The notes below the pieces were generated by a model. It saw only the letters and a program-made list of their open reading frames with translations. It ran no database searches and was not told where the DNA came from. Position numbers and translations under genes: made by a program. From the NCBI GenBank assembly GCA_965242965.1, contig OZ251518.1, positions 3,136,001 to 3,200,000 of the forward strand: a stretch of 64,000 bases of DNA. Reading direction: 5' to 3'. This DNA comes from Candidatus Poribacteria bacterium (GTDB lineage: Bacteria > Poribacteria > WGA-4E > WGA-3G). Of the stretch, positions 2,293-61,807 are shown one piece after another (positions within the stretch are counted from its first letter, which is position 1; each line of letters begins with the position of its first letter).

Positions 2293-2561
2293 TTATTGCG
2301 GTGGTGCCGGTGGCGTGCTTGATGGCGGCGGTTCCTTGAAGGGTTGTCCTTTCGCGGCTGCTTGCAGTCGCCGTTGATTCCACGCTGTCCACTCCCGGTC
2401 GCGCTCGGCGATGCCCTGGGCGATGCCTTGGCTTTCCCTTCGGCGATGCCTTGGGCTCTCCCTTCGGCTTTCCCCTGGGCGATGCCTTGGGCTCTCCCTT
2501 CGGCTTTCCCCTGGGCAATACGCTGTGCGCGTTCCTCCATGAACATTTGATACTTAATCAT
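2293..2561 (-). pseudogene. Duplicated C-terminal cassette of the 2638..3114 gene, with a 1-nt frameshift in the GKA repeats
   Basis: Own AGGAGG (2569-2574) and ATG 2561, MIKYQMFMEERAQRIAQGKAEG...; the shifted frame continues ERDREWTAWNQRRLQAAAKGQPFKEPPPSSTPPAPPQ* to TAA at 2293. Confidence 0.75.
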
Positions 2562-2637
2562 CAGCCAGCCTCCTATTTCAAAACCAAATAATTTGGTATT
2601 GGGCGCGGTTTGCAACCGCGCCTCTAGCCGGTGCGTG

Positions 2638-3114
2638 CTATTGCGGTGGTGCCGGTGGCGTGTTTGATGGCGGCGGTTCCTCGAAGGGTTGTCCTTTCGC
2701 GGCTGCGTCCAGTCGCCGTTCATTCCACGCTGTCCACTCCCTGTCGCGCTCGACAATGCCTTCGGTTTTTCCCTCGGCTTTTCCTTCGGCTTTCCCCTCG
2801 GCTTTGCCCTGGGCGATGCCTTCGGCTTTTGCCTTGGCAATGCGTTGCGCGCGTTCATCCATGAACATTCGATACTTAATCATTAGCCAGCCTCCTATTT
2901 CAAAACCAACCATCGTCAAGAAGAAGGCATACGGCAGGCAGTTCGTCATATGTCCGACGATGGCGATGCACGTTTCCGTAAAACCTTTCCCTTGCTCAAT
3001 TTCATACCATCCTACGAGGATGTTGTAAGCGATAACCAATGCCGAGAATACGAAAATGCCCGGCTTCTCCCAAACTTGCCTGAGGCTCAAGAGGGATATC
3101 CGCTGTTCTTTCAC
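2638..3114 (-). CDS. Two-TM membrane protein with EGKA-repeat coiled-coil tail and internal start at 2883
   Basis: GTG start 3114 with AAGGAG; two hydrophobic segments; internal AGGAGG (2891-2896) + ATG 2883; tail WTAWNERRLDAAAKGQPFEEPPP. Confidence 0.75.
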   Translation of the reverse strand: MKEQRISLLSLRQVWEKPGIFVFSALVIAYNILVGWYEIEQGKGFTETCIAIVGHMTNCLPYAFFLTMVGFEIGGWLMIKYRMFMDERAQRIAKAKAEGIAQGKAEGKAEGKAEGKTEGIVERDREWTAWNERRLDAAAKGQPFEEPPPSNTPPAPPQ

Positions 3115-3255
3115 TAAAACTCTCCTTATTATATTATAGCATATTCTGCAGGATTCATGCAAGACGGTTCTGACTTTTTTCAGGACAATTCAATTGCGCT
3201 GCCCCGCGCTCAAACAGGTTGGGACAGCTGCGAATTTCCACAGAATCTTGTGTTT

Positions 3256-4203
3256 CTACAAATGAAATTCGACTACGTCTCCATCGTAAATGACCTGGGT
3301 GCGGCTAACAGGTTGCCCATCGTGCCAGTGCGCGCCCCAGATTCGTGCGAGTCGGAATTCGGCGAAATCTTTGTGCAGCCCAGTGGCGGCATCCAGCACC
3401 GTCGCGCCAATGGGGAGGACAATCGGAGCATCGCGTTCGACCGGTTTGCCGGGTGCTTTCGGATAGACTCGCAGGATGTTTAGCGCGCCGTATAACGCTT
3501 TTAACAACTCCGCTTTGCCCTCGCCAGTTTGGGCAGAAATCGGGTAGAGCTGCACCGATTGTCCGTAAAACTCCGAGAGAATCTCCAACCGTGCATCGGC
3601 ATCGACTGCGTCTAACTGATTGGCAACGACGAGCGGTTTTTCTTCGCGCTGTCCTGCTTCGTCTAGCACGGCAAGCACCATCTCCAAGTCGTCAAGCAGT
3701 TCATCGCTGGCGAGGCTGAGAACAGTCAGCACCAACTCGGCGTTTCGGACGAGCGTCATCACCGTCGACGAGACGAAATCTGGCATGAGTGACGGCGTGT
3801 CGATGAGTTGGAATTGGATGTTTTCGTAAGGGAGCATCCCGACGAGCGGTGCGGTTGTCGTGTAAGGCGTGGGGGAAACGACGGGTTTCGCTTTCGTGAA
3901 AGCAGCGAGTATCTGCGATTTGCCGCTGTTCGGTGGCCCGAGCAACACGATTTGTCCGGCACCTTGTTTGGGGATGTGTTCGCTATATCCCTTCCGCGCG
4001 CCTTTTTTACCGCCGGTTGCGGCCGCGCCTTTTTTGATTCGGGCGATGCGCCGACGTAGATCAGCGACAACCTTCTCTGAGCCTTTGTGCTTGGGAACGA
4101 TGCGCAGCATTTCCTCAAGGAGAACGAGACGTTCCGCGTCGGTTTTCGCCGCTTCGTGCTCATGTTTGAGTTTGTAATATGGCGGTGGCAGATTTGCAGG
4201 CAT
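3256..4203 (-). CDS. DRG/OBG-family GTPase with C-terminal TGS domain
   Basis: MPANLPPPY N-terminus, GPPNSGKS P-loop, PYTT, DTP, NQLD, and C-terminal DGDVVEFHL. Confidence 0.85.
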   Translation of the reverse strand: MPANLPPPYYKLKHEHEAAKTDAERLVLLEEMLRIVPKHKGSEKVVADLRRRIARIKKGAAATGGKKGARKGYSEHIPKQGAGQIVLLGPPNSGKSQILAAFTKAKPVVSPTPYTTTAPLVGMLPYENIQFQLIDTPSLMPDFVSSTVMTLVRNAELVLTVLSLASDELLDDLEMVLAVLDEAGQREEKPLVVANQLDAVDADARLEILSEFYGQSVQLYPISAQTGEGKAELLKALYGALNILRVYPKAPGKPVERDAPIVLPIGATVLDAATGLHKDFAEFRLARIWGAHWHDGQPVSRTQVIYDGDVVEFHL

Positions 4204-4226
4204 GGTGTGCCTCCGAATTTTGGGGT

Positions 4227-4601
4227 TTAGGAATCGCGGGCTTCTAACTTCTGAATCAGCATATCAATCTGCTGTTGTTGCGCGGCAATTTGTTTTTGCT
4301 GCGCGTCAATTTGCTGTTGTTGCGCGATGAGCTCCTCGCGTGCGGTGGATTCCCTTTTCCACTCCTTTACGATGAGCGCGAGAGGAATACCGACGGTAGC
4401 AGCGACAAACGCGAGCAGTACCAAGGTCATCGCAAAATCCCGGTCCTGCTGTCTCTCAATAGCCACGAGTTCCGCACGCAACCGGTTTTCAGATTCTCTG
4501 ACAATTTCACGGATTTTGTTGAAGTCTTCGACATCCAATGCGCCGAATGCCGAAGTGCTGATGAGAAGTAAACCGATGAGTAAACTGAGTCCAAGTTTCA
4601 T
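4227..4601 (-). CDS. Signal peptide + coiled coil + TM + Gln-rich coiled-coil protein (paralog 3)
   Basis: MKLGLSLLIGLLLISTSAFGA signal, AAAGGAG RBS, similar to the two upstream genes. Confidence 0.75.
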   Translation of the reverse strand: MKLGLSLLIGLLLISTSAFGALDVEDFNKIREIVRESENRLRAELVAIERQQDRDFAMTLVLLAFVAATVGIPLALIVKEWKRESTAREELIAQQQQIDAQQKQIAAQQQQIDMLIQKLEARDS

Positions 4602-4665
4602 GTGTGTCTCCTTTGGTAGGGCACTGCGTGAGGTTGCGGTGCCCTATGAGTTTGCGTTGCACGCT

Positions 4666-5067: not shown

Positions 5068-5131
5068 GTGTGTCTCCTTTGGCAGGGCACTGCGTGAGGC
5101 TGCGGTGCCCTGTGAGTTTGCGTTGCACGCT

Positions 5132-7714: not shown

Positions 7715-7731
7715 AGTTCGTTTCCAACCCG

Positions 7732-9552: not shown

Positions 9553-10158
9553 ATGGCATATAACAGTTGGACCTTGGATACAGTGCAGGAAACATTTGAA
9601 CTCGAAGAGATTGATGCTCAAGGACTCTTTGCTGATATTGAACCGGTGACACCAAGCGCGCATCTGATAACAGCACTGGAACGAAAAACCGCCCTCGCCA
9701 TCGCTATCAGCACGGAAAAAGCGAAATCCGAACTCATTGTCGCCGATGTGCTGGTGGAACTCCGGGAACATTTTGAACGACGCATCAGCTTTTTCTCCGG
9801 GATTGAATTCAACGTTGATGCGGAAAACGAATTGAACGGAGTCTGTGATTTCGTCGTCAGTCTCTCGCCACGGCAATTTTCTTTGAAGGCACCTGTCATC
9901 GTCCTTGTTGAAGCCAAACGGGATAACCTTACCGAGGGGCTCGGGCAGTGTAGTGCCGAAATGGTAGCCGCGCAACGGTTTAACGCAAACGCCGGGAATG
10001 ACATCCCGTGCGTCTACGGCGCGACGACTTCGGGCACGGCGTGGCTCTTCCTGAAATTGGAGGGGCAGCGGCTCTCTATTGACATGAACGCTTATCATAT
10101 CGAGCGGTGCGATAGGATTCTCGGCATCCTTGCGAGTATGGTAGCCCAAAAGGCGTGA
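9553..10158 (+). CDS. 201-aa PD-(D/E)XK / HsdR-N-like hypothetical protein
   Basis: GVCDF...VLVEAKRD motif; GAGG RBS; TTGACA(9482)-18-TATCAT promoter; paralog of 1614..2219. Confidence 0.75.
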   Translation: MAYNSWTLDTVQETFELEEIDAQGLFADIEPVTPSAHLITALERKTALAIAISTEKAKSELIVADVLVELREHFERRISFFSGIEFNVDAENELNGVCDFVVSLSPRQFSLKAPVIVLVEAKRDNLTEGLGQCSAEMVAAQRFNANAGNDIPCVYGATTSGTAWLFLKLEGQRLSIDMNAYHIERCDRILGILASMVAQKA

Positions 10159-10225: not shown

Positions 10226-10873
10226 TTATGCGCGCCGGTCTTTTTCCGCTTCCGCTTCTTCAAGGCGTTGGCGGTATATCTCGGCACTTTCCCGATAGCT
10301 GTCGGCGCTGTGCCGGTAGGCTTCCGCGCTTTGTTGGTAGTCGTCAGCTCGGCGTTCGGCTTCCTCAGCTCGGCGTTCGGCTGCCTCGGCGCGGCGTATC
10401 GCTGCCTCAGCGCGCTGTTCTGCTGCCTCAGCGCGCTGTTCTGTCGCCCCAGCGCGCTGTTCTGTCGCCTCAGCGCGCTGTTCTGCAGCCCCAGCGAGCC
10501 GTATCGCTTCCGCAATGCTCTGTTCTTGCTCGTCGAGGCGCTGCCGGTATTCGGCATTCAGTTTTTTCACATCTAAATAATACATGATTCGCTCCAAAAT
10601 TTTACAGATAATCAGGATGAGGACCGGGAATCCAAATAGGAACTCCGACAGATGTGTCCAGATGGCTCCGGCGATGTCAACTGCTGGCGTGCCGGCTGTT
10701 ATCCCACTCCGCACCTTCATAATCACAACCCAAGCGGTATAGAAAGGTGAGACGAAGAGGAAAATCGCCACGGCGGGATTTAACCATCTTTTCGGTATGC
10801 CGCCGGGGAATGCGACGTATTCTTCGTCATCTTTTTCTTTCGCGTCTTCTCGTGCATCGCGTGCATTTTTCAT
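10226..10873 (-). CDS. Two-TM membrane protein with heptad-repeat coiled-coil tail; internal GGAG-ATG at 10585
   Basis: EEYVAFPGGIPKRW resembles the VNFLGIKQSW/VQFLGVRRAW of relatives; two TMs; AEAAEQR 21-bp tandem repeats at about 10340-10500. Confidence 0.75.
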   Translation of the reverse strand: MKNARDAREDAKEKDDEEYVAFPGGIPKRWLNPAVAIFLFVSPFYTAWVVIMKVRSGITAGTPAVDIAGAIWTHLSEFLFGFPVLILIICKILERIMYYLDVKKLNAEYRQRLDEQEQSIAEAIRLAGAAEQRAEATEQRAGATEQRAEAAEQRAEAAIRRAEAAERRAEEAERRADDYQQSAEAYRHSADSYRESAEIYRQRLEEAEAEKDRRA

Positions 10874-11498: not shown

Positions 11499-11963
11499 TC
11501 AAAATCCCATATCGAATTTGCAATACCAATACGGATACTCCTTCGCCGAGGCAACAAGACCTTTTCTTACCGGATTCTGATAGCAATAGCGGATAATCGT
11601 ATTTAATGCCGAATCATCACGGATGCCTTGCGCAAAATAGCGCGGCTGCCAAAAAGGACCACGGCGACCCAAACGTTCATTTATGTTCTTCGCTGTAAAA
11701 CTCTTGAGACGCTGCATCAGTTTCTCTAAAGGCAATTCGCTGCCTAATTGAATCACGGCGTGAAGGTGATCTGGCATGAGCATGAGACATTTCCAATTTA
11801 GATGTCCTTTGGATTCACGCCAGTTAAATGTATTGAGGATAACCGTCGCAGCCTGCGGGTTCGCCAGAATTGGGGCTCGGTCCCATGTTACGATGGTTAG
11901 GGCATAGTAGGTGCCAGGGACAGAACGGTGTTCGTTTTTGATTCGGTTTGAAGCGCGTTGCAT
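11499..11963 (-). mobile_element. REP-associated tyrosine transposase (RAYT, IS200/IS605 TnpA-like HUH Y1)
   Basis: Start 11963 with GGAGG; YYALTIVT, LMPDHLH (HUH), KSFTA, FWQPRY, IRYCYQNPVRKGL; flanked on both sides by GTAG palindromes. Confidence 0.9.
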
Positions 11964-11984
11964 GGAGGTTCCTCCAATATTTTT

Positions 11985-12520
11985 TGTCGTTCGGGATGTC
12001 CCGAACCCGGTGGGGCCATTATTTTGTAGTTCGGGAGCACCTGCTCCCGTTGGTGTTCGGAGCGGGCGCTCCGAACCTACAGACGATAGGGGCCTAATCC
12101 CCCAGGTTTGTAGTTCGGGAGCACCTGCTCCCGAACGGATTCGGCGATGGATGCCCGTTCCCGCGCGTGTTCGGAGCAGGCGCTCCGAACCTACAGAGGA
12201 GGAGGTGGCCAATCCCCCAGACCCTGTAGTGCCGATCCCCCCAGGTTTGTAGTTTGGGAGCGCCTGCTCCCGATACAAAAAAAAGAAGAGTAGTTCGGGA
12301 GCGCCCGCTCCCGAACGGTTCAGGAGCAGGTGCTCCTGAACTACAGATGACGGGCCCCATCCCATCGGTGTTCGGAGCAGGCGCTCCGAACCTACGGACG
12401 ATGACGATGGGAATGCCCAATCCCGATACGACCCCCAGGCCCTGTAGTTCGGGAGCACCCGCTCCCGATACAAAAAAAGAAGAGTAGGCCCTGTAGTTCG
12501 GGAGCGCCCGCTCCCGATAA
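11985..12520. repeat. REP array on the other side of the RAYT gene
   Basis: Repeated gtagttcgggagcacctgctcccga and the inverse ttcggagcaggcgctccgaacctac, forming paired (REPIN/BIME-like) units. Confidence 0.85.
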
Positions 12521-12566
12521 TAAAAAAAAAGAAGAGGGCGGGCAATTTAAAAAATTGCCCACCCTC
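12521..12566 (-). terminator. Rho-independent terminator of the large surface protein gene
   Basis: Minus strand reads gagggtgggcaattt-tt-taaattgcccgccctc followed by a T run. Confidence 0.8.
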
Positions 12567-12597
12567 AAGCGTTAGATGAGACCCCCCTGAGGGAGAC

Positions 12598-15500
12598 CTA
12601 CTCACGTGATTTCAAATCCCCCCACGTCGTCGTCGCTTTACCCGCAGCACCAATATAACCGCGTAAACGCGTGGTCCGCAAAGTGCGATGATCACCCGCT
12701 AAGGAGACATCTTCGATTTGATAGAAATACAGGACGTTCGGCTTCGCACTGGTGTCCGTCCACGTATACGCGGTCTTCTCACCCGTAGTACCAGCACCCG
12801 GAATTAACTGCGCATTGATACGCACAAACTCACCCGTCCGAGACTGACTCCGCAGAATGTTAAACCCTGCATTGTCTAACTCTGACTCCGTCGACCACGT
12901 GATGACAACCGCACCCGAATCGTTACGCTTCGAGTAGAAACTCGATAACTGAACAGGCAGCGGACCGCCTGCACGATAACCCGGCGTGCCGAGATCGTCT
13001 TCATCGCCGTAGTAGAGATCGTTGATATCAACTTTCTGCAGTCCATCAACTATTGCTGCGGAAATCCAGGCATCCTCTACCGTGCCGTCACTGAAGGAAC
13101 CTTCACGGCGAATCATGGAAGCACGTCCGCCTTCTTCAAGGTTACCACCCGGCAAGACCCAATCAGGATCGTCGTTGGTGCGCTTGTTACCGTCAGTGTT
13201 ACCCACCTCATCAACGACCTTATCTTTCGGGTCAGAAATGCTGAGGTAGAACCCTATGGAACTCAGCACGGCATCGCGCCGACTTGACATATCCAGCTCT
13301 GTCTTGTGATTATTCCAGAGGTTGTAAACTCGGGAAGCTGGGAAGTGCTCGCCTTTAGACGTACTCCCATGCGTCGACACAATCAGAACCGTCTGATTCG
13401 GGTGAACCTGAATCTTCTTCAGTTTGAGCGTGGCGTTAGTCGCCGTGCGCAAATCCTCATCGGGAGATTTAGTGTTCTGGATTTCCAGTGTCCAGTTCTC
13501 CAGATTCACTGTCTGCGTCATGGACGGGTTAAACAACTCGATCCACTGCGGCACGCGGCCATTGCCTGAGCCGAACATGATCTCGCTGATAACCACCGGA
13601 TTCGCATTCGTCAGACCGTCGGATTTCACCTCGCCCTGAACGGCGTTGTTCGGATAACCCGGTGTGCCGCTATTGAGGGTGTCTGCGCTCCGCTTATAAC
13701 CAGGTCCTTTCACGTCAGTCGTTTTCCACTCCTCGTGGTGGAAGAGTCCCTTGCCGAAATCACGGACCCAGGATTTGCCATCGTCTTTCTTCAAATCGTT
13801 GAGCGCGTCGGCATGAACCGGTTTCCTCGTCGATCTGAGCGGCCACACTTCCGTGGCACTCGCGGTATTCGCCACAAACTGATTGCCCGCGATATCCGCA
13901 ATCTTCTCATGCGAACCGAGTTTGGGCTCGGTGCGGAGAACCAGCATGAATTTGTCGTCAGGTATATTCAACTTATCTGTCTGATAATACCGGACAGACG
14001 AACCACCCCTGTTGCCTTTGTCTTCGCCATTCGGGTCATTAACGTCTGCACCCTCAGCGATGTTCGTTGAACTCGGATCGGTGTTGACGACTAACAGGTA
14101 GCCTTTGCCAGGGATGACAACGTCCTCATCACTCGCGAACTGGAACAACTTCTCATCCTTGCCATTATCGCCGACTTTGCTCAACTCATACTTGTTGATT
14201 GTGACATCGGAGCTGCCACGGTTGTGAAGTTCGATCCAGTCATTCGTAGCCCCACTACGGTTGGCAATCTCGTTGAAGACGATACCGCCGCGGTTGACTG
14301 TGGTCTTCCCAATAATCGCGAGAGGCTTCTCACCCGGTGTCCCTTTGCGCGTGCCGCTCAGGTTCCTACGTGAGGTGGAGGCTTCCCAACTACTATCTAA
14401 GGTCCCGTCGGGAACACCGTTCAACTGCTCCTTCCGGTTGTCCACACCGTTCGTATCGGTTAGGCCTGTGCCGCCTTTGTGATCAATTTTCTCAACTTTG
14501 TTGTAATCAATCTTACGCCGCATTGAGACGAGATCTCTCAGCGTCCCCGCGACACCAGGACTAAGCTTCGTTCTGCCACTCTGACCGTATTTGCCGCCTG
14601 AGGTATCAGAGATAGTCCAGTGAGACTGGCCTAACTGCCGATTGCTAAACCTATCGCTAACATTAGCAGCAGAAGTAGCACCGGAGATGAACTCAATTGT
14701 CCAATCCAAATCACCCGTGTCAATGATGCCGTCGGCAGTACCACGCGTGGTTTTGGTATTGTAGAGTTCAATCCACTGACTCATTGTCGGATCCGACAAG
14801 CCGTTATCGCTACCCCACATTACCTCACTGATAACCAGGTCTTCCGCTGTTGTTCCAGACGGACCGATTAAATCAATGGTGCCACCATCGTAAGCCAAGA
14901 AGTCTCTGATGTCTTGCCACAGGTCGTCGCGAATATCAACAACCGGGTAGTTAGTTCCAGAGACACCGTTCATGGCAGCATCTGCAGACTTCGCAATCAC
15001 CACAAAACGCGAACCATCATCAGCACTCGGCGTGATTTTGGGAAGTTTAAACGTAAATCCTTTTTTACCCCCGGTAAGTTCCCCCCCAATGCCTGTTGTT
15101 TGCTCGGAGGGATCTGGTGTAACCGGTGCCGTGAAACCAGTCAGAATGTCTCTACTGGATGTCACTGCATTGCCGTTACCAGCAGCATCCTCCACGGCAT
15201 TCGCCGCCACGGTGATAACCACCTTTTCGGCACCCGCATTCGGCGTGACGGTCGCTATGTAGGATTTGAAATCCTCAGGATTCGCTTTAAAGCCGGTGAT
15301 AGACGCATTAGAAGCCGTAACTTCATCCTCGGCCAATTCGTCATCGCCGAAGGCATCCCTATTAAGGGTTGGGTGTGTCGCATCATCCCCCGATCCCATC
15401 TGGTCGGTAAAGGTGAATTTTGCCGTAAAACCTACACCAACTGGCTGGTTGCCTTCCGGAACCTCAATGACTGCCACCGGCAAAACGGTATCAACCATAA

Positions 15501-16443
15501 CCTCTACCGCACCGTCTGCAAGTTCATCGTCGGTTTTAGTTGCCGAAATTGCAGCGTTGGATTTACCGCCAGCATCAGTAACGACTCCTGCCTTTACCCC
15601 TATAACTACCGACGAAGCACTAGCCTTAATGAGTGTGGCAACCGTATACTTGGACATGAGAGGAGATCCAGTGGACAATGCAGCAGATGTTTCGACCTCT
15701 GTAACCGTGCCAACATCCGTAACGCTTCCTCCAACAATATCAACAAGATCAGAACCATCATTCATGAACGTTGGTTCGGTCTTAAAGTCGGCATTATCGT
15801 AAATTGTGAAAGTCACCTCAAAAGGAGCACTACCTGCCTCTTCCGGGGCCGTAATTGTCACTACCGGTACCGGATTGTAGGTGTTATAGTGCACTATATG
15901 AGAAGTTCCAGATGCCGGCTGATCCGCCGCTGTATTCCAAGCATCTCCAGCAGCATCCTCAAATGCACCGGCGGGCGTGCTACCAGTAGTACCTCTAACA
16001 ACTAATGTTATAGTACCTGTTCCGTTCGCAGGAACTGTCACACCCACTGTAAACCACGTATTCGTTGTGGAAGGACCTGCATCAGCAATCGGCATTGGAG
16101 TTAACGTGATGCCTGCCGCCGCTACCTCACCGGTTGCAGTTGTCGCGGCCGGACTGCCATCAGTAATGGTAACCTTAAGATCTGCGGCATCAAATTTCTC
16201 GCTCGCCGTGGCACTAGCCACGTTTAGAGCCGTGTTAAACTTAATGATGAACAGATTCTTGGCACCGCCTGTGGTCAACGCCGTACCGGTACCTGCTCCA
16301 GTGGGTGTCATTGTGACCCGCTCTATCGAGCTAACGGTAGGCACAGTAGCCTGCACGTCCTCCACTGGCACCGCGAGGAATGCGATTCCTGCGATCAGCA
16401 GTAAGACGAAGAAACTCGGTAAGGAAAGTAATTTCCTTTCCAT
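12598..16443 (-). CDS. Large secreted surface protein: Ig-like repeats, three lamin-tail-like domains and a C-terminal sorting-type module
   Basis: Signal peptide; DAAG/DAGG Ig-like strands; VISEVMW..QWIELYN, VFNEIAN..DWIELHN, VISEIMF..QWIELFNP; LPVQLSSF..WSTESELDNAGFNILRS; ends GKATTTWGDLKSRE; GGAGG RBS. Confidence 0.85.
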   Translation of the reverse strand: MERKLLSLPSFFVLLLIAGIAFLAVPVEDVQATVPTVSSIERVTMTPTGAGTGTALTTGGAKNLFIIKFNTALNVASATASEKFDAADLKVTITDGSPAATTATGEVAAAGITLTPMPIADAGPSTTNTWFTVGVTVPANGTGTITLVVRGTTGSTPAGAFEDAAGDAWNTAADQPASGTSHIVHYNTYNPVPVVTITAPEEAGSAPFEVTFTIYDNADFKTEPTFMNDGSDLVDIVGGSVTDVGTVTEVETSAALSTGSPLMSKYTVATLIKASASSVVIGVKAGVVTDAGGKSNAAISATKTDDELADGAVEVMVDTVLPVAVIEVPEGNQPVGVGFTAKFTFTDQMGSGDDATHPTLNRDAFGDDELAEDEVTASNASITGFKANPEDFKSYIATVTPNAGAEKVVITVAANAVEDAAGNGNAVTSSRDILTGFTAPVTPDPSEQTTGIGGELTGGKKGFTFKLPKITPSADDGSRFVVIAKSADAAMNGVSGTNYPVVDIRDDLWQDIRDFLAYDGGTIDLIGPSGTTAEDLVISEVMWGSDNGLSDPTMSQWIELYNTKTTRGTADGIIDTGDLDWTIEFISGATSAANVSDRFSNRQLGQSHWTISDTSGGKYGQSGRTKLSPGVAGTLRDLVSMRRKIDYNKVEKIDHKGGTGLTDTNGVDNRKEQLNGVPDGTLDSSWEASTSRRNLSGTRKGTPGEKPLAIIGKTTVNRGGIVFNEIANRSGATNDWIELHNRGSSDVTINKYELSKVGDNGKDEKLFQFASDEDVVIPGKGYLLVVNTDPSSTNIAEGADVNDPNGEDKGNRGGSSVRYYQTDKLNIPDDKFMLVLRTEPKLGSHEKIADIAGNQFVANTASATEVWPLRSTRKPVHADALNDLKKDDGKSWVRDFGKGLFHHEEWKTTDVKGPGYKRSADTLNSGTPGYPNNAVQGEVKSDGLTNANPVVISEIMFGSGNGRVPQWIELFNPSMTQTVNLENWTLEIQNTKSPDEDLRTATNATLKLKKIQVHPNQTVLIVSTHGSTSKGEHFPASRVYNLWNNHKTELDMSSRRDAVLSSIGFYLSISDPKDKVVDEVGNTDGNKRTNDDPDWVLPGGNLEEGGRASMIRREGSFSDGTVEDAWISAAIVDGLQKVDINDLYYGDEDDLGTPGYRAGGPLPVQLSSFYSKRNDSGAVVITWSTESELDNAGFNILRSQSRTGEFVRINAQLIPGAGTTGEKTAYTWTDTSAKPNVLYFYQIEDVSLAGDHRTLRTTRLRGYIGAAGKATTTWGDLKSRE

Positions 16444-19364: not shown

Positions 19365-20057
19365 TTAGGTCTCCTGCGTACCGTCCGTGCCATTATTCGG
19401 CGGCGGTTCGTCAAACGGTTCGCCATTTTCCGCGGCGGCGATACGGCGTTCATACCAATTAAGCCATGCATCCCGTTCATCGCGGAGGTTTTCCACGATG
19501 TTGAGATGATTGCCATTAGGCATAGGTTCATCGAAACGTTCGCCATTTTCCGCGGCAGCGATGCGGCGTTCGTTCCACGCCTGCTGTTCTTCGCGTTCGG
19601 CTTGGAACTGCGCGATGGTCTCGGCAGCGACGCGCGCTTCTTCTTCCGCAGCGCGTATCGCCTCTTCTGCGACGAGTCTCGCTTCTTCAGCGACTCGCTG
19701 TCCTTCTTGTGCCTCGCGAATGAGTCCGTCGCGCCATTCGCGATACTTGTCATGAATCATCATCAGAATAGCTCCTGTATGGATAGCGCAAAACATGAGG
19801 AACATCACGCCGCCGCTCACGGCTAGGAGGTGGACAGCAGCACTGCCGATAATCTCGGCGGGATGTTTGTCATACTTTACGACAAAGATAAAATACCAAG
19901 CGATATAAGCATCCATCACTAACGAATAGATGGGCGAAGTCACGCGCCACCAGCTCTGCTTGATGCCGAGGAAGTTGACGATTTTCTCCTCAACGTCCTT
20001 CTCCTCTGCATCGTTTGCTGGTGGCGTGTCGGGTTTATTTCGTGTGTTCAAAGTCAC
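19365..20057 (-). CDS. Two-TM protein with coiled-coil tail (array copy 4); internal AGGAG-ATG at 19763
   Basis: IVNFLGIKQSWW, two TMs, MMIHDKYREW..., twin WxxRRIAAAENGExFDEPxP motifs. Confidence 0.8.
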   Translation of the reverse strand: MTLNTRNKPDTPPANDAEEKDVEEKIVNFLGIKQSWWRVTSPIYSLVMDAYIAWYFIFVVKYDKHPAEIIGSAAVHLLAVSGGVMFLMFCAIHTGAILMMIHDKYREWRDGLIREAQEGQRVAEEARLVAEEAIRAAEEEARVAAETIAQFQAEREEQQAWNERRIAAAENGERFDEPMPNGNHLNIVENLRDERDAWLNWYERRIAAAENGEPFDEPPPNNGTDGTQET

Positions 20058-20138
20058 TCCTTCTTCTCTGGCGTGAGGGCCCCTGTCCCGCGCCGGGCGG
20101 CATGCAACACTGCAGCGCGACGCGGGACACGTCTCACC

Positions 20139-20810
20139 TTACAAGGCATCGGGGCCGTTGGTGCCGTTGTTGGGTGGCGGTTCGTCAAATGGTTCGCCAT
20201 TTTCGGCGGCAGCGATGCGGCGTTCATACCAATTAAGCCATGCATCCCGTTCATCGCGTAGGTTTTCCACGATGTTGAGATGATTGCCATTAGGCATGGG
20301 TTCATCGAAACGTTCGCCGTTTTCGGCGGCGGCGATGCGGCGTTCGTTCCATGCGGTGATCTGCGCGATAGTCTCGGCGGCGACGCGCACCTCTTCTTCC
20401 GCAGCGCGTCTCGCTTCAGATTCGGCGAGTCTCGCTTCTTCAGCGACTCGCTGTCCTTCTTGTGCCTCGCGAATGAGTCCGTCGCGCCATTCGCGATACT
20501 TGTCATGAATCATCATAAAAATAGCTCCTGTATGGATGGCGCAGAACATGAGGAACATCATGCCGCCGCTCACCGCTAACAGGTGGACAGCCGCACTGCC
20601 GATAATCTCGGCAGGATGTTTGTCATATTTCACGACAAAAATAAAATACCAAGCGATATAAGCATCCATCACCAACGAATAGATGGGCGAAGTCACGCGC
20701 CACCAACTCTGCTTGATGCCGAGGAAGTTGACGATTTTCTCCTCAACGTCCTTCTCCTCTACATCGTTTGCCGGCGGCGTGTCGGGTTTGTTTTGTTTAT
20801 TCAAAGTCAC
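20139..20810 (-). CDS. Two-TM protein with coiled-coil tail (array copy 3)
   Basis: Near-identical to 19365..20057; AAGGAG RBS; start GTG 20810 or TTG 20804. Confidence 0.8.
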   Translation of the reverse strand: MTLNKQNKPDTPPANDVEEKDVEEKIVNFLGIKQSWWRVTSPIYSLVMDAYIAWYFIFVVKYDKHPAEIIGSAAVHLLAVSGGMMFLMFCAIHTGAIFMMIHDKYREWRDGLIREAQEGQRVAEEARLAESEARRAAEEEVRVAAETIAQITAWNERRIAAAENGERFDEPMPNGNHLNIVENLRDERDAWLNWYERRIAAAENGEPFDEPPPNNGTNGPDAL

Positions 20811-20969
20811 TAACTCCTTAGACTGTCGTCTGTTGTAAGGCGAGGGATACCTGTCCCTCCATGTTACGACTCTACTTAACATTTTACACGATGGGACAGA
20901 AAAATGTCAAGGGACATCCGTGTGCCGCCCGGAGAGATTCCGTTTTTCCCTTTAGGCGCGTCTTCCCTG

Positions 20970-21165
20970 GTCTCGATGTTCCCGTAGCGCGGGGGCCTGT
21001 CCCCCGCGATCGTTCGGTAACCCGCAGCATGGCGAGGGACAGGCCCTCGCCCTACGGTGACGTGGCGTTTTTTTTCGTAACGCGCGCCGTTTTTTTTTCG
21101 TAGCGCGGGGGCCTGTCCCCCGCGTTGGCCATCGTCATAGGAGAGCCCTCCCTGTCTCGATTCTA
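20970..21165. repeat. REP cluster (GTAGCGCGGGGGCCTGTCCCCCGCG family)
   Basis: Repeated palindromes; part of the block is duplicated at about 23775-23880. Confidence 0.75.
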
Positions 21166-21171
21166 GCGAGA

Positions 21172-21495
21172 CTAATCTACAGTTGGCGTGCCGGATGCGA
21201 CATTCGGCACGTTCTTTGGCCGGCTTTCCTCAACAAAATCGGAGAAAACCGCGACTGACACGGGATGCTTCTTCTCCGTGCTCAGGCGCAGGCGTTTCAG
21301 ACGTTCAATTGCATGCAGCGTGCGCGCCGTTAGATAACTCTCCCCACATTCGGTGCAGCTCATCACAGGCACATCTTTAATGACGAAGCGCGCCTCGTCT
21401 TTGCCGTAGCTGCGTGAGACATAACGTTGGCGGATGCCTTCTTTCCCGCACATATCACATATCATTGGTTGGCTCCTTGTTGCTTTATTTGACAT
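21172..21495 (-). CDS. YgiT/MqsA-type zinc-finger protein (putative antitoxin)
   Basis: CDMCG...VIKDVPVMSCTECGESY; start may be the internal MICD. Confidence 0.75.
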   Translation of the reverse strand: MSNKATRSQPMICDMCGKEGIRQRYVSRSYGKDEARFVIKDVPVMSCTECGESYLTARTLHAIERLKRLRLSTEKKHPVSVAVFSDFVEESRPKNVPNVASGTPTVD

Positions 21496-21766
21496 AAACG
21501 GTAATGATAACTAATACCCCTGTGAACGTGAACTTCGTCACGACAACGGCGATTTCAGCACCGAGCGTTTGTCCCTCCACAACATACTTCCATTCATCAG
21601 ACTGCCGGTCCTTCTGCCGGTCAGTGATTTTTCCAGTGAGAAGGGCTTGTTCCACGTCAAAAATTGTGAGTCCATCGTTCTCCATTTCCACAAAAGCGTG
21701 GTGCGTCATGATGTATGCGAGAGTGTGGACTTGCTCGTGAATTCGCTTGAGTGTTTGTTCAAACAT
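21485..21766 (-). CDS. DUF4258-like protein (RelE/BrnT-like putative toxin)
   Basis: MTHHAFVEM...DVEQALLTG...KYVVEG...VIITVY; directly upstream of the zinc-finger gene. Confidence 0.7.
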   Translation of the reverse strand: MFEQTLKRIHEQVHTLAYIMTHHAFVEMENDGLTIFDVEQALLTGKITDRQKDRQSDEWKYVVEGQTLGAEIAVVVTKFTFTGVLVIITVYVK

Positions 21767-21873
21767 AAGCGAGGTAGATCCCTGCAGTGTGATGGGGGAA
21801 CAGCCCCTGTCGTCGGGGTTGCAGCCTCCCCCCGTGCATCCGGTGCATGAGGGAGGCTGTTCCCCGGCGATGT

Positions 21874-22560
21874 TTAGCTGCCGTTCGTTCCGTCGGTGCC
21901 GTTATTAGGCGGCGGTTCGTCGAAAGGTTCGCCATTTTCCGCGGCAGCGATTCGGCGTTCATACCAATTAAGCCATGCATCCCGTTCATCGCGCAAGGTT
22001 TCCACGATGTTGAGATGATTGCCATTAGGCATGGGTTCATCGAAACGTTCGCCGTTTTCCGCGGCGGCGATGCGGCGTTCGTTCCACGCTGCAATCTGCG
22101 CGATAGTCTCGGCGGCGGCGCGCGTTTCTGCTTCCGCTGCAAGTCTCGCCGCTTCCTCAGCAAGTCTCGCTTCCTCTGAAACGAGTATCGCTTCTTCGGC
22201 GACTCGCTGTCCTTCTTGTGCCTCGCGAATGAGTCCATCGCGCCATTCGCGATACTTGTCATGAATCATCATAAAAATAGCTCCTGTATGGATAGCGCAA
22301 AACATGAGGAACATCATGCCGCCGCTCACCGCTAACAGGTGGACAGCCGCACTGCCGATAATCTCGGCGGGATGTTTGTCATATTTCACGACAAAGATAA
22401 AATACCAAGCGATATAAGCATCCATCACTAACGAATAGATGGGCGAAGTCACGCGCCACCAACTCTGCTTGATGCCGAGGAAGTTGACGATTTTCTCCTC
22501 AACGTCCTTCTCCTCTGCATCGTTTGCCGGTGGCGTGTCGGGTTTGTTTTGAGTATTCAA
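21874..22560 (-). CDS. Two-TM protein with coiled-coil tail (array copy 2)
   Basis: Near-identical N-terminal half to copies 3 and 4; variable EEARLA repeat length. Confidence 0.8.
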   Translation of the reverse strand: MNTQNKPDTPPANDAEEKDVEEKIVNFLGIKQSWWRVTSPIYSLVMDAYIAWYFIFVVKYDKHPAEIIGSAAVHLLAVSGGMMFLMFCAIHTGAIFMMIHDKYREWRDGLIREAQEGQRVAEEAILVSEEARLAEEAARLAAEAETRAAAETIAQIAAWNERRIAAAENGERFDEPMPNGNHLNIVETLRDERDAWLNWYERRIAAAENGEPFDEPPPNNGTDGTNGS

Positions 22561-22644
22561 AGTTACTCCTTCTGTGGCAGTCGTCGGGGTGCCAGCCTCC
22601 CCCGTGCATTCCGGTGCATGAGGGAGGCTGTTTCCCGGCGGTGT

Positions 22645-23319
22645 TTAGCGGCCGTTCGTACCGTCGGTGTCATTATTCGGCGGCGGTTCGTCAAACGGTT
22701 CGCCTTGGCGTGCGGCAGCGATACGACGTTCAAACCACGCGAGATAGTCGGCTTGTTCCTGCTCCAACTGCGCCACGATATCAATCGGGTGTCCGTTGGG
22801 CATGGGTTCGTCGAAGCGTTCGCCATCTTCTTGCGCGCGGAGTCGGCGTTCGTTCCACGCCTGCTGCGCCTCGCGTTCGGTTTGTAGCTGCGCGATGGTC
22901 TCAGCAGCGGTGCGCACTGCTTCTTCTGCTGTGCGCGCTGCTTCTTCAGCGGCAAGTCTCGCCGCTTCGGAGGTGCGGACGCTCTCTTCAAGTGCCCGCC
23001 GGCGCGCCGATAACTTATTTCGATACCATTCATGTAACATCATGGTTAAAACTCCTAAGTGTATGCCGGCGATCATCGCCAGCATCGTTAACCCGCTAAC
23101 AGCGAGCATGTGAACCGCGAAACTGTGAATCATATCACTGACGCGGCCTTCCCTATCTAACTGAAAAGCGATATACCACGCACCATACAGCACCATCAGC
23201 ACCGCATGGATAATGGAAGTAGTTTGCCACCAACTCTGTTTGATGCCGAGGACATTAACAATCTTTTCTTCCTCGCGTGCGGGTGGCGTGTCGGGTTTAT
23301 TTCGTGTATTCAAAGTCAC
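22645..23319 (-). CDS. Two-TM protein with coiled-coil tail (array copy 1, divergent)
   Basis: IVNVLGIKQSWW; internal AGGAG before MMLHEW; twin tail motifs. Confidence 0.8.
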   Translation of the reverse strand: MTLNTRNKPDTPPAREEEKIVNVLGIKQSWWQTTSIIHAVLMVLYGAWYIAFQLDREGRVSDMIHSFAVHMLAVSGLTMLAMIAGIHLGVLTMMLHEWYRNKLSARRRALEESVRTSEAARLAAEEAARTAEEAVRTAAETIAQLQTEREAQQAWNERRLRAQEDGERFDEPMPNGHPIDIVAQLEQEQADYLAWFERRIAAARQGEPFDEPPPNNDTDGTNGR

Positions 23320-27071: not shown

Positions 27072-28460
27072 CTATTTCTCTGTCTTCCCGGAGCTCCCTT
27101 TCTGCACGCGCAAGAAGGCAGGGATATCCCAATCCGTCTCGCCACGGTTTCTGCGGTTCGCCGCGCGAGGAGCAGGAGTTTCCTCAGCAGCCGGTGCGGC
27201 TCTGCGAGCCCGTGTCGGTGCCGGTTCCGCTGCAGGCTGTGCAGGCGCGCCGCGTGCCGGAAGCCCGGCACTCGCGCGTCCCGGACGCGTCCGAGTCTGG
27301 GCTGCTTTGCCCTGCCGGTTGCCAGGAATATGTGAACCAGGCATCGGCGTTCTACGCGGGTCTGCGTATGCCTCCGGTTCGCTGTATTGCCTGCCACCCG
27401 GTGCGGATACCCTCGCATCGCTGCGCAAATCCACCGAATCAAACCCGGTTGCGATGACGGTGACCAGCACTTCATCGCCGAGTTCCATGGCATCTCTGTA
27501 GACAAGCCCGAAGATAATCTGCGCATCGGTAGCGGCTTCTTGGATTACCTGCATCGCCTCATCCAATTCATGCATCATGAAATCGGGGGGTGACGTGATG
27601 TTGACTATCATGCCGTATGCCCCGGTGATGTCTGTCTCTTCAAGGAGCGGCGAGGAGATGGCTTGCTGCGCGGCGATTTGCGCGCGGTTATCCCCGGTGG
27701 CACGCCCCATGCCCATCAGCGCGCTGCCCGCATCCCGCATGATAGATTCCACATCGGCGAAGTCAACGTTAATCTCACCCGACTCCGTAATGATATCCGA
27801 GATACTCTGAACGCCGTGGAGCAAAATCTGGTCTCCGACGCGGAGTGCCTCCTGAATCGGCAGTTTTCTATCCATCGCGTCCATCAACCGTTGGTTCGGC
27901 ACGACGATGACAGAATCAGCAGATGTGCGGAGCTCCTCAAGACCGGTTTCGGCTTGTTCGGCGCGTCGCATTCCCTCAAAATTAAAAGGACGCGTGACAA
28001 CCCCGATGGTGAGCGCGCCGCGTTCGCGCGCGAGGGATGCAATAAGCGGTGCCGCGCCGGTGCCGGTGCCGCCGCCCATCCCAGCGGTGACGAACACCAT
28101 GTTCGCATCCTCAACGATTTCCTCAAGATGCTCCCGGTCTTCTTCCGCCGCTCTGCGTCCGACATCCGGATTCGCGCCGGCACCAAGGCCGTTCGTGGTG
28201 TTAATCCCGATCTGGAGTTGCGTCGCGCCGTGGCACGTCTTCAACGCCTGATGGTCTGTGTTGACAGCATAGAATTCGATGCCCGCCAAACCGGCTTCAA
28301 TCATGCGCTTGACTGCGTTTCCGCCTGCGCCGCCGACACCGATAACCTTAATTTTCGCTCGCAGATCGCCAAATTCTTCTTGTTCAAATTCAATCATGTC
28401 TGGTTTCGGTTGCGCTTGCGGTGCAACCTCATTCCTCCTGTTGTGTGCCTTAATAGGCAC
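27072..28460 (-). CDS. ftsZ: Cell division protein FtsZ
   Basis: [32 protein letters not shown]-terminal DIPAFLR. Confidence 0.97.
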
Positions 28461-28519: not shown

Positions 28520-28695
28520 TCTCCTACTGGCTCATCGAGACCAGGAGGTCTCGCCTACCGCGGGGAGTCGAGACCAGGAGGTCTCGCCTACCGGGCGTGC
28601 ATCGAGACCAGGAGGTCTCGCCTACTGGTGCATCGCGACACTGTAGTTCGGGAGCACCTGCTCCCGAAACGGACGCGGAGGAGTCTCTCCTACGG
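28520..28695. repeat. REP cluster (ATCGAGACCAGGAGGTCTCGCCTAC x3 plus one RAYT-type REP)
   Basis: Tandem palindromes ending in CTAC (reverse of GTAG). Confidence 0.8.
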
Positions 28696-28766: not shown

Positions 28767-29141
28767 CTACTCATCATTCTGTGCCGCGGCGTTGCGATTC
28801 TCGGCGGGAGTGGGTTCGGTGAAGTCCTCGCCGGCGGCTTCCGCAGCCTTCCGACGATTATACCATTCCACCCATTCACGATTCGCAAGTTCCCAGCCGA
28901 TGGCACCGCCGAGTTTCCTACTGAGTTCTCTGCTGCGTGCTTCGCCGAGCTCCCTAGCAAGTTCTCTGTCGATTGCTTCCCCGATTGCCTCGCCGAGTTC
29001 CCTGCCGCGTGCCTCGCCGAGTTCCGTAGCGAGTTTCCAGCTGATAGCCTCGCCGATAGTCTCGCCGCGGCCATCGCGGCGTGCTTCGCGCCTCCGCCTC
29101 CGCTCCTTAATCTGTTCCATCACCAAATCATACAAAATCAT
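28767..29141 (-). CDS. Stand-alone C-terminal cassette 2 of the 29338 gene
   Basis: Starts MILYDLV like the internal start of the parent; ATGA overlap; GEARGRELGEAI repeats; WVEWYNRRKAAEAAGEDFTEPTP. Confidence 0.75.
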   Translation of the reverse strand: MILYDLVMEQIKERRRRREARRDGRGETIGEAISWKLATELGEARGRELGEAIGEAIDRELARELGEARSRELSRKLGGAIGWELANREWVEWYNRRKAAEAAGEDFTEPTPAENRNAAAQNDE

Positions 29142-58484: not shown

Positions 58485-58579
58485 CGCGGGGTTTCCCCAA
58501 CGCCGAAGCATGGCGAGGCACAGAACCCTCGCCCTATGAAGAAAGGGAACCGGTTTCGGAAATAACCCGAGGGTATTCC

Positions 58580-59953: not shown

Positions 59954-59955
59954 AC

Positions 59956-60789
59956 GTGACTTACAAAGGCTACGAGAACCCGCAGCTGGTGATTACCGCT
60001 GAGGCGTTGAAAGACGAACTGGACAAGGACATGTTCTGTGTCGTTGATACGCGGCCGACGTATGAATATATCCGTGGGCATATACCCGGGGCGTTGCACT
60101 TGGATCTTTTTGGGTTGAGTTTGACAGATACCCGCATGGAGACGTTTGATACCTTTATGGGGATGATGGCGTATCTGTTCCAACAGCGTGGACTTGACCC
60201 GGGTAAGCCCATCGTCTGGTATGAGGACATTTCTGGGACGCGTGCCTCGCGCGGTTTTTGGTTCTGTGAATACATGGGGCATCCTGAGCCGCGGCTGCTG
60301 GATGGCGGGTTTAAAGCATGGCTCGCTGCGGAGGGCCCTGTCAGCACGTCCGGGGCGGCGCCGCCTGATGTGCCGCTGTTTCCCATCCAAGCGAAGCACG
60401 ATACGCACATGAACGTTGACTTGATTCGGCTGCTGTTGCACCGGGACGATTTCGTGCCGTTGGATACGCGCACGCCGGATGAGCACTACGGCAGAGTTGC
60501 TCGTGCAGCGCGCGCTGGCTCCATCCCCGGCTCCATCCACATCGAGTGGATTGACAACCTCGACGAGAATGGTGCCTTCAAACCAGCGGATGAACTTCGC
60601 GCGATGTATGCGGATGTCGGCATCACCCCAGACAAGCAGGTAATGTGTTACTGACAGGGTGGGTACCGCTCTTCCCAGTCCTATTTGGCGTTGCGGCTTT
60701 TGGGCTATCCGAGAGTAAGCAACTACATCGGTTCGTGGAAAGAGTGGGGAGACCGGCTGGATTTGCCGGTCGAAGTGCCGCAGGCGTAA
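59956..60789 (+). CDS. Tandem-domain rhodanese/sulfurtransferase with in-frame TGA (probable selenocysteine) at the active site
   Basis: GHIPGA, LDGG, GSIPGS; TGA at 60652 in [35 protein letters not shown]; frame continues to TAA 60787-60789. Confidence 0.88.
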
Positions 60790-60954
60790 TGAACTACTGG
60801 GGGCGCGCTTGGCAAGCGCGCCCCCCAGTACCTGCGTGGTGACAAACCGCGCTAGCAAAAAAACTTGACAGTTCCCCGGACATCATGATAAAATATTGAC
60901 ATTAGGTAAAACACCGTTAAGGTTCGCGAGTTACCTAAAAAAAGGAGCATTTTC

Positions 60955-61455
60955 GTGCAAGAAGAACGTAAGTCGCTATTCAGCGTCAGAGACGTAGAAA
61001 CCGCTATCGTTCATTTCGGAATAATGGAGTTGATTTATCCGTTCCTTATCATCGGATACGTTCTCATCAAAGGCGGGTATACGCCGCTGGAGACGTTATT
61101 TCTCATTTTGAGAAATTTTCCGCTGTGTATGCAAATAGGGATAGGGCTTATCATCTTCAAGGAGGCAGTAGATATCATGCTATTCAGACGTTGGAGTGAA
61201 GCCAAAGCCGACTTTGCCGTCCAACTTGAACAGGCAAAAACCGAGGGCATCGCCGAGGGCATCGCCAAGGGCAAAGTCGAAGGCATCGCCGAGGGCAAAA
61301 CCGAAGGAAGAGCCGAAGGCAAAGCTGAGGGCAAAGCTGAGGGCATCGCCGAGGGCGTTGCAGAACGGGACCGGCAGTGGGCTGCGTGGAATAACCGCCG
61401 CATCGAGGCGGAAGCCAAGGGCGAACCCTTTCACGAACCACCGCCGCATCCGTAA
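60955..61455 (+). CDS. Two-TM protein with EGKA-repeat tail; internal AAGGAGG-ATG at 61177
   Basis: TTGACA(60865)-18-TAAAAT promoter, AAGGAG RBS, two hydrophobic segments, WAAWNNRRIEAEAKGEPFHEPPP. Confidence 0.75.
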   Translation: MQEERKSLFSVRDVETAIVHFGIMELIYPFLIIGYVLIKGGYTPLETLFLILRNFPLCMQIGIGLIIFKEAVDIMLFRRWSEAKADFAVQLEQAKTEGIAEGIAKGKVEGIAEGKTEGRAEGKAEGKAEGIAEGVAERDRQWAAWNNRRIEAEAKGEPFHEPPPHP

Positions 61456-61540
61456 CAACCCCGGTGCGAGGGGAGAAGAACGGGGGCACTGCCCCCGTTT
61501 CTCGGATAAATCCTGCATCTTCAAGGAGGCAGTAGATATC

Positions 61541-61807
61541 ATGCTATTCAGACGTTGGAGTGAAGCCAAAGCCGACTTTGCCGTCCAGCTTGAACAGGCA
61601 AAAACTGAGGGCATCGCCGAGGGCAAAGCCGAAGGAAGAGCCGAGGGTAAAGCCGAAGGCATCGCCGAGGGCAAAGCTGAGGGCAAAGCCGAAGGTAAAG
61701 CCGAAGGCGTTGCAGAACGTGACCGGCAGTGGGCTGCGTGGAATAACCGCCGCATCGAGGCGGAAGCCAAAGGCGAATCATTTCACGAACCACCGCCGCA
61801 TCCGTAA
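61541..61807 (+). CDS. Stand-alone duplicate of the C-terminal cassette of 60955..61455 (88 aa)
   Basis: Homology begins at about 61516 (catcttcAAGGAGG...ATG); one fewer 4-aa repeat; same downstream hairpin. Confidence 0.75.
   Translation: MLFRRWSEAKADFAVQLEQAKTEGIAEGKAEGRAEGKAEGIAEGKAEGKAEGKAEGVAERDRQWAAWNNRRIEAEAKGESFHEPPPHP

Follow-up and report, generated by a model that had tools for sequence, protein, structure and literature searches.

The stretch of DNA considered here (the window) comprises 64,000 nucleotides (nt) of contig OZ251518.1, positions 3,136,001-3,200,000 of the forward strand, in the 5.7-Mb, two-contig genome of Candidatus Poribacteria bacterium (GCA_965242965.1), and all window positions given below count from its first letter. 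Along it lie eight full-length genes of a protein family that joins two transmembrane (TM) segments to a long C-terminal helix, each with an in-frame ATG at the end of the second TM segment (TM2). An earlier reading made from the letters alone (the sequence-only reading) had claimed eight such genes, each with a Shine-Dalgarno (SD) sequence before the internal ATG, and translation confirms them all, with GGAG 6-12 nt upstream of every internal ATG. Throughout, L denotes the long two-TM form and S the short C-terminal form from the internal start. The genes are as follows:

2638-3114, minus strand: gene A, 158 amino acids (aa); two-TM hairpin, internal ATG at 2883, GGAGG at 2895-2891, four-residue (xEGx) repeats, conserved tail
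10226-10873, minus strand: member of a tail-less subfamily, 215 aa; shares the two-TM half but lacks the W..W..RR tail, repeats of the AEQRAEA type, GGAG 6 nt before the internal ATG at 10585
22645-23319, minus strand: gene C1, 224 aa; opens a unit of two genes that follows a TTGACA-17-TAAAAT promoter, ATG of the internal start at 23043, tail motif present twice
21874-22560, minus strand: gene C2, 228 aa; internal ATG at 22272, two tail motifs
20139-20882, minus strand: gene C3, longest open reading frame (ORF) 247 aa; probable start near 20813, preceded by the promoter in a second copy, ATG of the internal start at 20516
19365-20057, minus strand: gene C4, 230 aa; internal ATG at 19763
29338-29832, minus strand: gene D, 164 aa; internal ATG at 29577 after GGAGTGGAGG, near-consensus promoter at 29900-29872
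60955-61455, plus strand: gene E, 166 aa; promoter TTGACA-18-TAAAAT at 60865-60894, internal ATG at 61177, AAGGAGG at 61159-61165, four-residue repeats at residues ~95-137

All eight proteins begin with a short basic N-terminus carrying a conserved motif of the type R.S[LI]..[VIL]R, followed by hydrophobic segments of about 21 and 29 residues with a loop of about nine residues between them, the methionine of the internal ATG at the end of the second segment, and then a long repeat-rich helix. The tail W..W..RR..A...G..F.EP.P closes seven of the eight, all but the gene at 10226, as had been read from the letters. That the ATG opens a repeat coiled coil in every gene, also claimed at that stage, holds for the repeat-rich helix and needs correction for the four genes in 19365-23319, whose repeats are heptad-like instead of four-residue and whose products each carry two tail motifs. 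Full-length genes possess an SD at their own start and near-consensus promoters (TTGACA-17/18-TAAAAT with TG), seen at 60865 and 29900 and in front of two genes in the group of four in 19365-23319; a simple scan revealed no promoter inside the genes or in front of the downstream copies described below. Between species of the genus, the ratio of nonsynonymous to synonymous divergence (pN/pS) of orthologues is 0.17-0.33 for the TM part and 0.16-0.51 for the C-terminal part, and therefore both halves are real coding sequence.

The flanking charges fit a hairpin with both ends inside the cell. Averaged over 47 members, the first 20 residues hold 3.2 lysines plus arginines, the loop 1.3 and the stretch of 20 residues beyond TM2 4.9, as expected of an N-in/C-in hairpin whose helix and tail are cytoplasmic. 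An alignment of 80 homologues yielded an AlphaFold2 model with helices at residues 14-39, 44-112 and 126-155 (mean predicted local distance difference test, pLDDT, 65.5; the hairpin reaches about 85, the repeats stay below 50), and this helix layout indicates that TM2 probably continues directly into the cytoplasmic helix with the conserved methionine inside it. Against the PDB, the model found no match at E <= 0.001, and a sequence search with the family profile returned nothing below E = 0.4.

The case for translation from the internal start is made at the nucleotide level. DNA was available for 47 full-length members, and every one of them has a methionine where TM2 ends, 45 in the alignment column itself and two offset from it. 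The 45 full-length members used to assess the SD were grouped into 21 clusters (single linkage, 50% identity), the interval from -18 to -5 relative to the internal ATG was scored, and the null model recoded the same seven residues before the methionine synonymously with the genome's own codon usage. GGAG occurs in 19 of the 21 clusters against 4.8 expected, and GGAGG or AGGAG in 14 against 2.6; since the clusters are homologous these counts overstate their independence, yet saturation of synonymous sites is to be expected below 50% identity. The internal SD and ATG are thus conserved beyond synonymous expectation, a check that the sequence-only reading had proposed. By way of background, GGAG lies at the same spacing before 478 of the 14498 internal in-frame ATGs found in long ORFs of this genome (3.3%). 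Moreover, GGA accounts for 31 of 47 glycine codons in the seven codons before the methionine, compared with 51 of 211 in the 68 codons further upstream and 17% genome-wide, so that the SD signal resides in codon choice. The residue that follows the glycine varies (G, A, V, D or E); its codon always starts with G.

Relatives in the Dehalococcoidia sharpen this picture. Their full-length members carry valine in the methionine column, encoded by GTG, and their S-only copies begin at the same place. Three of the four GTG copies lie 7 nt after GGAGGAGG or GGGAGG; the fourth, the S-only copy of record L090, has only GGGGG, and a fifth relative (L091) has ATG after GGAGGG. Because the valine is encoded by GTG behind an SD, it is the start codon that appears to be conserved, not the amino acid, and in our comparison this is the strongest single piece of evidence for the internal start. 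Protein databases point the same way. Among 267 homologues drawn from two large searches, 203 have methionine in the start column; the 64 that do not comprise 29 alignment gaps, 13 valines, 7 leucines, 5 isoleucines and other residues. Of the 43 short homologues with methionine in the column and no TM half, 34 begin exactly at the conserved methionine. Taken together, these comparisons make it probable that the internal start is real.

The segment that follows the start evolves in fixed steps. The 17 closest homologues of the gene E protein (69-95% identity, 142-182 residues) all differ from it in length by non-zero multiples of four residues, from -24 to +16, and every insertion or deletion among them falls within residues 95-131, in a tract that begins 21 residues after Met75. 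The unit, xEGx, combines one small or hydrophobic residue with charged residues and glycine, and is encoded by 12-nt repeats; other subfamilies use eight-residue (ERGIKLGE) or heptad-like units. The xEGx tract draws FliH matches down to E 1e-8 and sub-threshold matches to Yae1_N. Membership in FliH/YscL was considered and rejected, the best score being 35 bits against a cut-off of 180 and confined to the repeat region.

Downstream of three of the loci lie S-only copies, here called cassettes:

2293-2561, minus strand: cassette A; duplication beginning 24 nt or more upstream of the ATG (2561), SD of the parent kept, 1-nt frameshift in the repeats
29138-29341, minus strand: cassette D1, 67 aa; ATG overlapping the stop codon of gene D (ATGA), fewer repeats than the parent
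28767-29141, minus strand: cassette D2, 124 aa; ATG overlapping the stop codon of D1 (ATGA), repeat tract much longer
61541-61807, plus strand: cassette E, 88 aa; duplicated unit from ~61517, 24 nt before the ATG, SD (AAGGAGG) and ATG kept, one repeat fewer than the parent

The sequence-only reading had the C-terminal segment copied downstream as separate ORFs at three loci. All four cassettes are real; two qualifications apply. Cassette A has lost one C in its repeat tract, which puts its tail out of frame with the ATG, and the pair at 28767-29341 possesses no SD of its own, so that its ATGA overlaps make an arrangement for translational coupling. Gene E and cassette E are each followed by the same terminal hairpin. 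In the genome as a whole there are eight or nine cassettes, the four of the window and others at four or five further loci, and many are found in other Poribacteria genomes. Where alignments are readable, cassette homology starts 0-28 codons upstream of the methionine and never downstream of it; 11 readable cassettes keep GGAG or GGAGG at the right spacing, and three more have an ATG that overlaps the upstream stop codon or comes shortly after it. In 11 parent-cassette pairs from this genome and its genus mates the frames remain open at synonymous divergence (pS) of up to 0.39, and pooled over these pairs pS is 0.169 and nonsynonymous divergence (pN) 0.052, giving pN/pS of 0.31. Tract length differs between cassette and parent in 10 of the 11.

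Gene D is located between ftsA (29912-31156) and ftsZ (27072-28460). Two other genomes of the genus have the gene at the same locus, with one and two cassettes respectively; one species has an ATGA junction and the other a spacer with an SD. The cassettes of either species resemble its own parent gene, which implies that they are born repeatedly or homogenised with the parent. The locus orthologous to gene E has no cassette in two genus mates, and the cassette there is accordingly young. That the cassettes might be assembly artefacts, an alternative raised alongside the original claim, is ruled out: contigs from three other public runs span the spacer-cassette junction at 61474-61605, and cassettes stand at the ftsA-ftsZ locus of genus mates. 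These were Logan contigs, which are short and break at repeats, and they were used for bridging only, with no depth inferred. One metagenome contig fuses parent position 61273 to cassette position 61700, and another carries 36 extra nt in the repeat tract. As far as comparison of sequences can carry, then, the two-part architecture, the conservation of the start at the nucleotide level, the four-residue steps of the tract and the recurrence of open, constrained cassettes are seen directly, and the structural half of the sequence-only reading (a long two-TM form, a short C-terminal form from an internal SD-ATG, and cassettes downstream) is well supported.

The family is widespread. With a hidden Markov model (HMM) seeded by 12 paralogues, 30 ORFs are found in this genome, distributed over 16 loci, ten of which fall within 3.085-3.43 Mb; further members occupy 29 loci of other Poribacteria. 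The family is present in 48 of the 61 genomes sampled from the phylum (0-22 matches apiece), and a profile search of 1.84 billion representatives returned 420 clusters (50% identity) at E <= 1e-10. Family members and cassettes occur also in Dehalococcoidia (metagenome-assembled genome records L087-L091), which suggests, from sequence, transfer between phyla. In the ESM Atlas only clusters labelled 'hypothetical protein' are hit, Chloroflexota being the commonest source, and six members searched against Pfam and NCBIfam gave no match at E <= 1 above the curated cut-offs. We found no description of the family in the literature, in a search whose scope did not extend to the supplements of the Rpn paper discussed next (Fig. 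S6 and Dataset S1, which may list short-form domains on other N-terminal domains).

The closest known parallel is the Rpn family of nucleases. According to Zhong et al. (2023, PNAS; PMC10400941), RpnS is made from an internal ribosome-binding site and start codon within the rpn gene; four-residue repeats begin 8-20 residues after the RpnS methionine and belong to a long dimerising helix, and these repeats differ widely from strain to strain and decide which L is neutralised by which S. The same paper describes tandem duplication of rpn genes and, for some of them, a separate copy of the short form downstream (RpnSs), which groups with its own parent and may disappear through fusion. All these architectural traits are apparently present here: an internal ribosome-binding site and start yielding, on the evidence of the DNA, a short protein with the same sequence as the C-terminal part of its long counterpart; four-residue (12-nt) repeats about 20 residues after the internal methionine, in a long helix, whose number varies among close strains; separate downstream copies of the short form that derive from their own parent and can be lost by fusion; and tandem duplicates, many copies per genome and a patchy distribution. 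The Rpn analogy offered by the sequence-only reading is therefore closer than it had stated, since the four-residue repeats, the own-parent short copies and their loss by fusion have all been found. Nonetheless, the N-terminal half here is a two-TM hairpin rather than a PD-(D/E)XK nuclease, the repeats are followed by a W..W..RR..G..F.EP.P tail rather than by the DUF4351 three-helix bundle, a simple scan detects no internal promoter, and some subfamilies have heptad-like or eight-residue repeats. The Rpn models PF04754 and TIGR01784 match none of the six members, and PF04754 matches nowhere in the genome. Given that both the nuclease domain and the DUF4351 fold are absent, the family is not a member of Rpn; it is, as judged from its sequences, an Rpn-like design built on a different protein.

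The genome was also examined for a canonical Rpn homologue. The one candidate, a 346-aa ORF with EGRE repeats (C1:1913331-1914371, plus strand, equivalent to L128:332-1372), was not confirmed as one, reaching TIGR01784 only below threshold (16 against 52 bits) and matching no Pfam nuclease family. It has eight EGRE tetrads near its C-terminus and, some 20 residues ahead of these repeats, an in-frame ATG with GAGG 5 nt in front of it, and may represent a second gene-within-gene family; ORFs of 338-434 aa in other Poribacteria, matched in the repeat region, may be its relatives.

We propose that these are gene-within-gene loci of an undescribed family in Poribacteria and Dehalococcoidia, the best explanation of the whole and one that we hold at just under even confidence. 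In this proposal L would start with a short N-terminus in the cytoplasm, cross the membrane as a two-TM hairpin, and continue as a long cytoplasmic helix, which includes the hypervariable tract, into a conserved tail. S would be soluble and translated from the conserved SD and ATG or GTG; because the internal start sits exactly where TM2 leaves the membrane, S would be the cytoplasmic part of L. Extra S-only copies would arise repeatedly just downstream and be translated through a retained SD or through ATGA stop/start coupling. By analogy with RpnL and RpnS, the two forms would associate through their shared repeat helix, S capping L or blocking its self-association and so holding it inactive; L freed from S and self-associated would damage or gate the membrane through its hairpin, following a toxin-antitoxin or abortive-infection logic; and repeat number would decide which S fits which L. 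That L and S form such an antagonistic pair is a tentative suggestion, put a little more cautiously than the scheme as a whole, and a role in phage defence is rather unlikely. Structural modelling of a complex between the two, suggested at the outset, was carried out: the predicted L+S complex scored 0.51 (best control 0.00), with runs agreeing in at least 97% of contacts and partner pLDDT of at least 84. Among 80 solved complexes 58 reach the pass mark, and among 110 mismatched pairs 2 do; with scores of 0.60 or less it is reached by just 7 of the 80 but by both mismatches. These counts hold only roughly for this run because it used an alignment built by us. The prediction lends weak, model-based support to L-S association.

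Other systems share single features with the proposed arrangement. Phage holin/antiholin genes (lambda S105/S107) use dual N-terminal starts separated by two codons, and each of the two products is a membrane protein; class II holins possess two TM segments and a charged cytoplasmic C-terminus. Like these, one gene here would give two directly interacting products with potentially opposing action on a small membrane protein. In contrast, the second start comes after TM2 and would give a soluble product, and no endolysin or phage context accompanies the family loci. The TM effectors of CBASS and Pycsar are two-TM modules of abortive-infection systems under nucleotide-signal control. They resemble L in combining a two-TM hairpin with a cytoplasmic oligomerising or sensing part and in the membrane disruption that would, by analogy, follow self-association; unlike them, the loci have no cyclase, sensor or operon partner and no PADLOC match, and control would lie in the intragenic short form. 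Finally, the xEGx tetrads resemble the AxxxG(xxxG)n tracts of the GxxxG helices in FliH/YscL and Yae1, a likeness confined to the repeats and found here without flagellar or secretion context.

Several observations weigh against the proposed antagonistic gene-within-gene scheme. One Poribacteria clade (IQ[AV]WDIIM; five sequences) and one single sequence lack any SD, the clusters on which the SD counts are based are not fully independent, and the distant database members with leucine, isoleucine or another residue in the start column entered the comparison as protein. Cassettes almost never match the repeat number of their parent and so, under the Rpn rule, would not neutralise the neighbouring L; this mismatch is left unexplained by a simple 'spare antitoxin' idea. 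The C-terminal part neither matches PF14261 (DUF4351) nor is predicted as a three-helix bundle, the AlphaFold2 model instead having a long helix, low-confidence repeats and one tail helix. As regards defence, six members matched no family in PADLOC-DB v2 at E <= 0.01 and no PHROG family of known function, the sole PHROG holin match having E = 0.01. When the ORFs lying up to 4 kb from the 16 loci were compared all against all by BLAST, no neighbour recurred, and a conserved operon partner was accordingly rejected; in the window itself the neighbours are mostly housekeeping genes. Moreover, the tail is the most conserved part of the protein, and this fits a common cellular partner better than an arms-race surface.

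This last point and the lack of a defence context favour the main rival, a tether with a soluble competitor. L would be non-toxic and would anchor a conserved cytoplasmic partner to the inner membrane through its tail, at a distance set by the repeats; S, whether from the gene or from cassettes, would be a dominant-negative competitor that adjusts the amount of partner tethered, and no killing would take place. Residues W145, R148, A152, F159, E161 and P164 are invariant in 80 sequences, and the tail motif is confined to the family in this genome (25 matches, 23 of them family ORFs and the other two apparently spurious). The periplasmic loop and the N-terminal motif are conserved as well, which suggests a specific role over a generic pore. 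Throughout the genus one locus retains its place between ftsA and ftsZ, and no defence-island context is found. However, copy number is high and variable (16 loci here, 0-22 matches per genome elsewhere), the family spans two phyla, the tract is hypervariable between strains and the cassettes turn over fast. Such behaviour would be unusual for a housekeeping tether, and the same traits lie behind the defence reading of Rpn in PMC10400941. We regard the tether as somewhat unlikely. As for the ftsA-ftsZ position, a general role in cell division was considered and rejected: none of 29 other Poribacteria ftsZ loci has a family member, and only two same-genus genomes do. The 16 loci, the presence in 48 of 61 genomes, the genus-specific insertion between ftsA and ftsZ, the second phylum and the possession of own promoters are together typical of selfish or defence genes.

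Alternatively, the cassettes may serve mainly as silent donors, recombination with which swaps tract length and yields contingency-type variation in the manner of pilS/pilE or of the orphan C-terminal modules of polymorphic toxins, their own translation being incidental; this reading is compatible with either a toxin-antitoxin pair or a tether. It would account for the difference in tract length in 10 of 11 pairs. Homology between cassette and parent, short on the 5' side (the end of TM2) and long on the 3' side (the tail), is in keeping with it, as are the contig fused between 61273 and 61700, the contig with the enlarged tract, the want of a promoter before any cassette in our simple scan and the one frameshifted copy. 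A silent donor would nevertheless hardly be expected to keep a usable start at its boundary (GGAG or GGAGG in 11 cases, a position at or near the upstream stop in three), nor a frame that stays open at pS of up to 0.39 with pooled pN/pS of 0.31, and the E. coli equivalent, RpnESs, is produced as protein according to PMC10400941. A cassette could, moreover, be both donor and translated gene. We consider it quite improbable that cassettes act chiefly in this way.

Least probable is the absence of any internal initiation, the methionine and Gly/Glu-rich stretch being structural or an SD-like insertion pause and the cassettes decaying products of unequal crossing-over: G, E, V, D and A are common at helix ends and make GGAG likely anyway (0.17-0.45 per cluster under the synonymous null alone), one clade has no SD, one cassette is frameshifted and the locus orthologous to gene E has no cassette in two genus mates, but GGAG is found in about four times as many clusters as the null predicts, GGA is enriched only in the seven codons before the methionine, a start codon (GTG) and a stronger SD are kept where the residue has become valine, cassette 5' ends never fall downstream of the methionine where readable, most short homologues (34 of 43) start there, and the cassettes evolve under constraint.

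Returning to the proposed gene-within-gene scheme, its wider bearing lies in the occurrence of the full set of Rpn hallmarks on an unrelated membrane protein, on account of which the design looks general and modular, not peculiar to one nuclease family. A commentary on the Rpn work (PMC10400984) asks whether intragenic antitoxins are the tip of an iceberg. It is conceivable, if rather doubtful, that the Rpn-type control module (internal start, tetrad pairing helix and spare cassettes) is a portable regulator, here placed on a two-TM effector, and that these loci represent a second, single-gene class of intragenic toxin-antitoxin or abortive-infection system spreading between the co-resident symbiont phyla Poribacteria and Dehalococcoidia. 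The family also bears on the origin of the 12-nt repeats and the downstream short copies, which arise here without a nuclease encoded in the gene; were the portable-regulator reading true, repeat expansion and cassette birth would not need RpnL activity, which would settle a question left open for Rpn. At 150-230 residues and with no enzyme domain, the proteins are a compact test object suited to asking how tetrad number sets partner specificity. Independently of mechanism, an abundant undescribed family is added to the poorly known biology of uncultured sponge symbionts.

The surroundings of the loci offer some observations in their own right. Neighbours in the window include a GTPase, an IS200-like Y1 transposase, a giant protein with a lamin-tail domain, a PDDEXK_3 protein, a radical-SAM enzyme, ftsA and ftsZ, and a MoeA-like gene. 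The transposase domain is located at the C-terminus of a 368-aa ORF (11499-12605, minus strand), which adjoins a 1281-aa protein with lamin-tail and Ig-like domains (12598-16443, minus strand). A 201-aa protein encoded at 1614-2219 (minus strand) and again at 9553-10158 (plus strand) matches the PADLOC model PD_DExK (CRISPR-associated accessory; E 5e-46). It has about 39 close and 11 distant paralogues in the genome, including a tandem array of about 14 copies (C1:1383756-1392125), and with some 50 copies its two adjacencies to family loci are weak evidence. Between the gene pairs of the 19365-23319 array, at 21172-21766 (minus strand), lie two overlapping ORFs of 93 and 107 aa in a toxin-antitoxin-like layout, the second with CxxC...CxxC; the pair has no PADLOC match and meets only PHROGs of unknown function, and the 107-aa ORF, the one scanned, has no Pfam match. 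An element of about 95 nt at ~28533-28628, between cassette D2 and ftsZ, has dozens of copies of 75-88% identity in a same-genus genome, consistent with repeats of the repetitive extragenic palindromic (REP) or miniature inverted-repeat transposable element (MITE) type. Many Poribacteria carry a second FtsZ-like domain within very long frames of about 1350-1450 aa (for example G050:C1:51574-52533), and the present genome has one at C1:2873062-2874012, in a 710-aa frame with one TGA.

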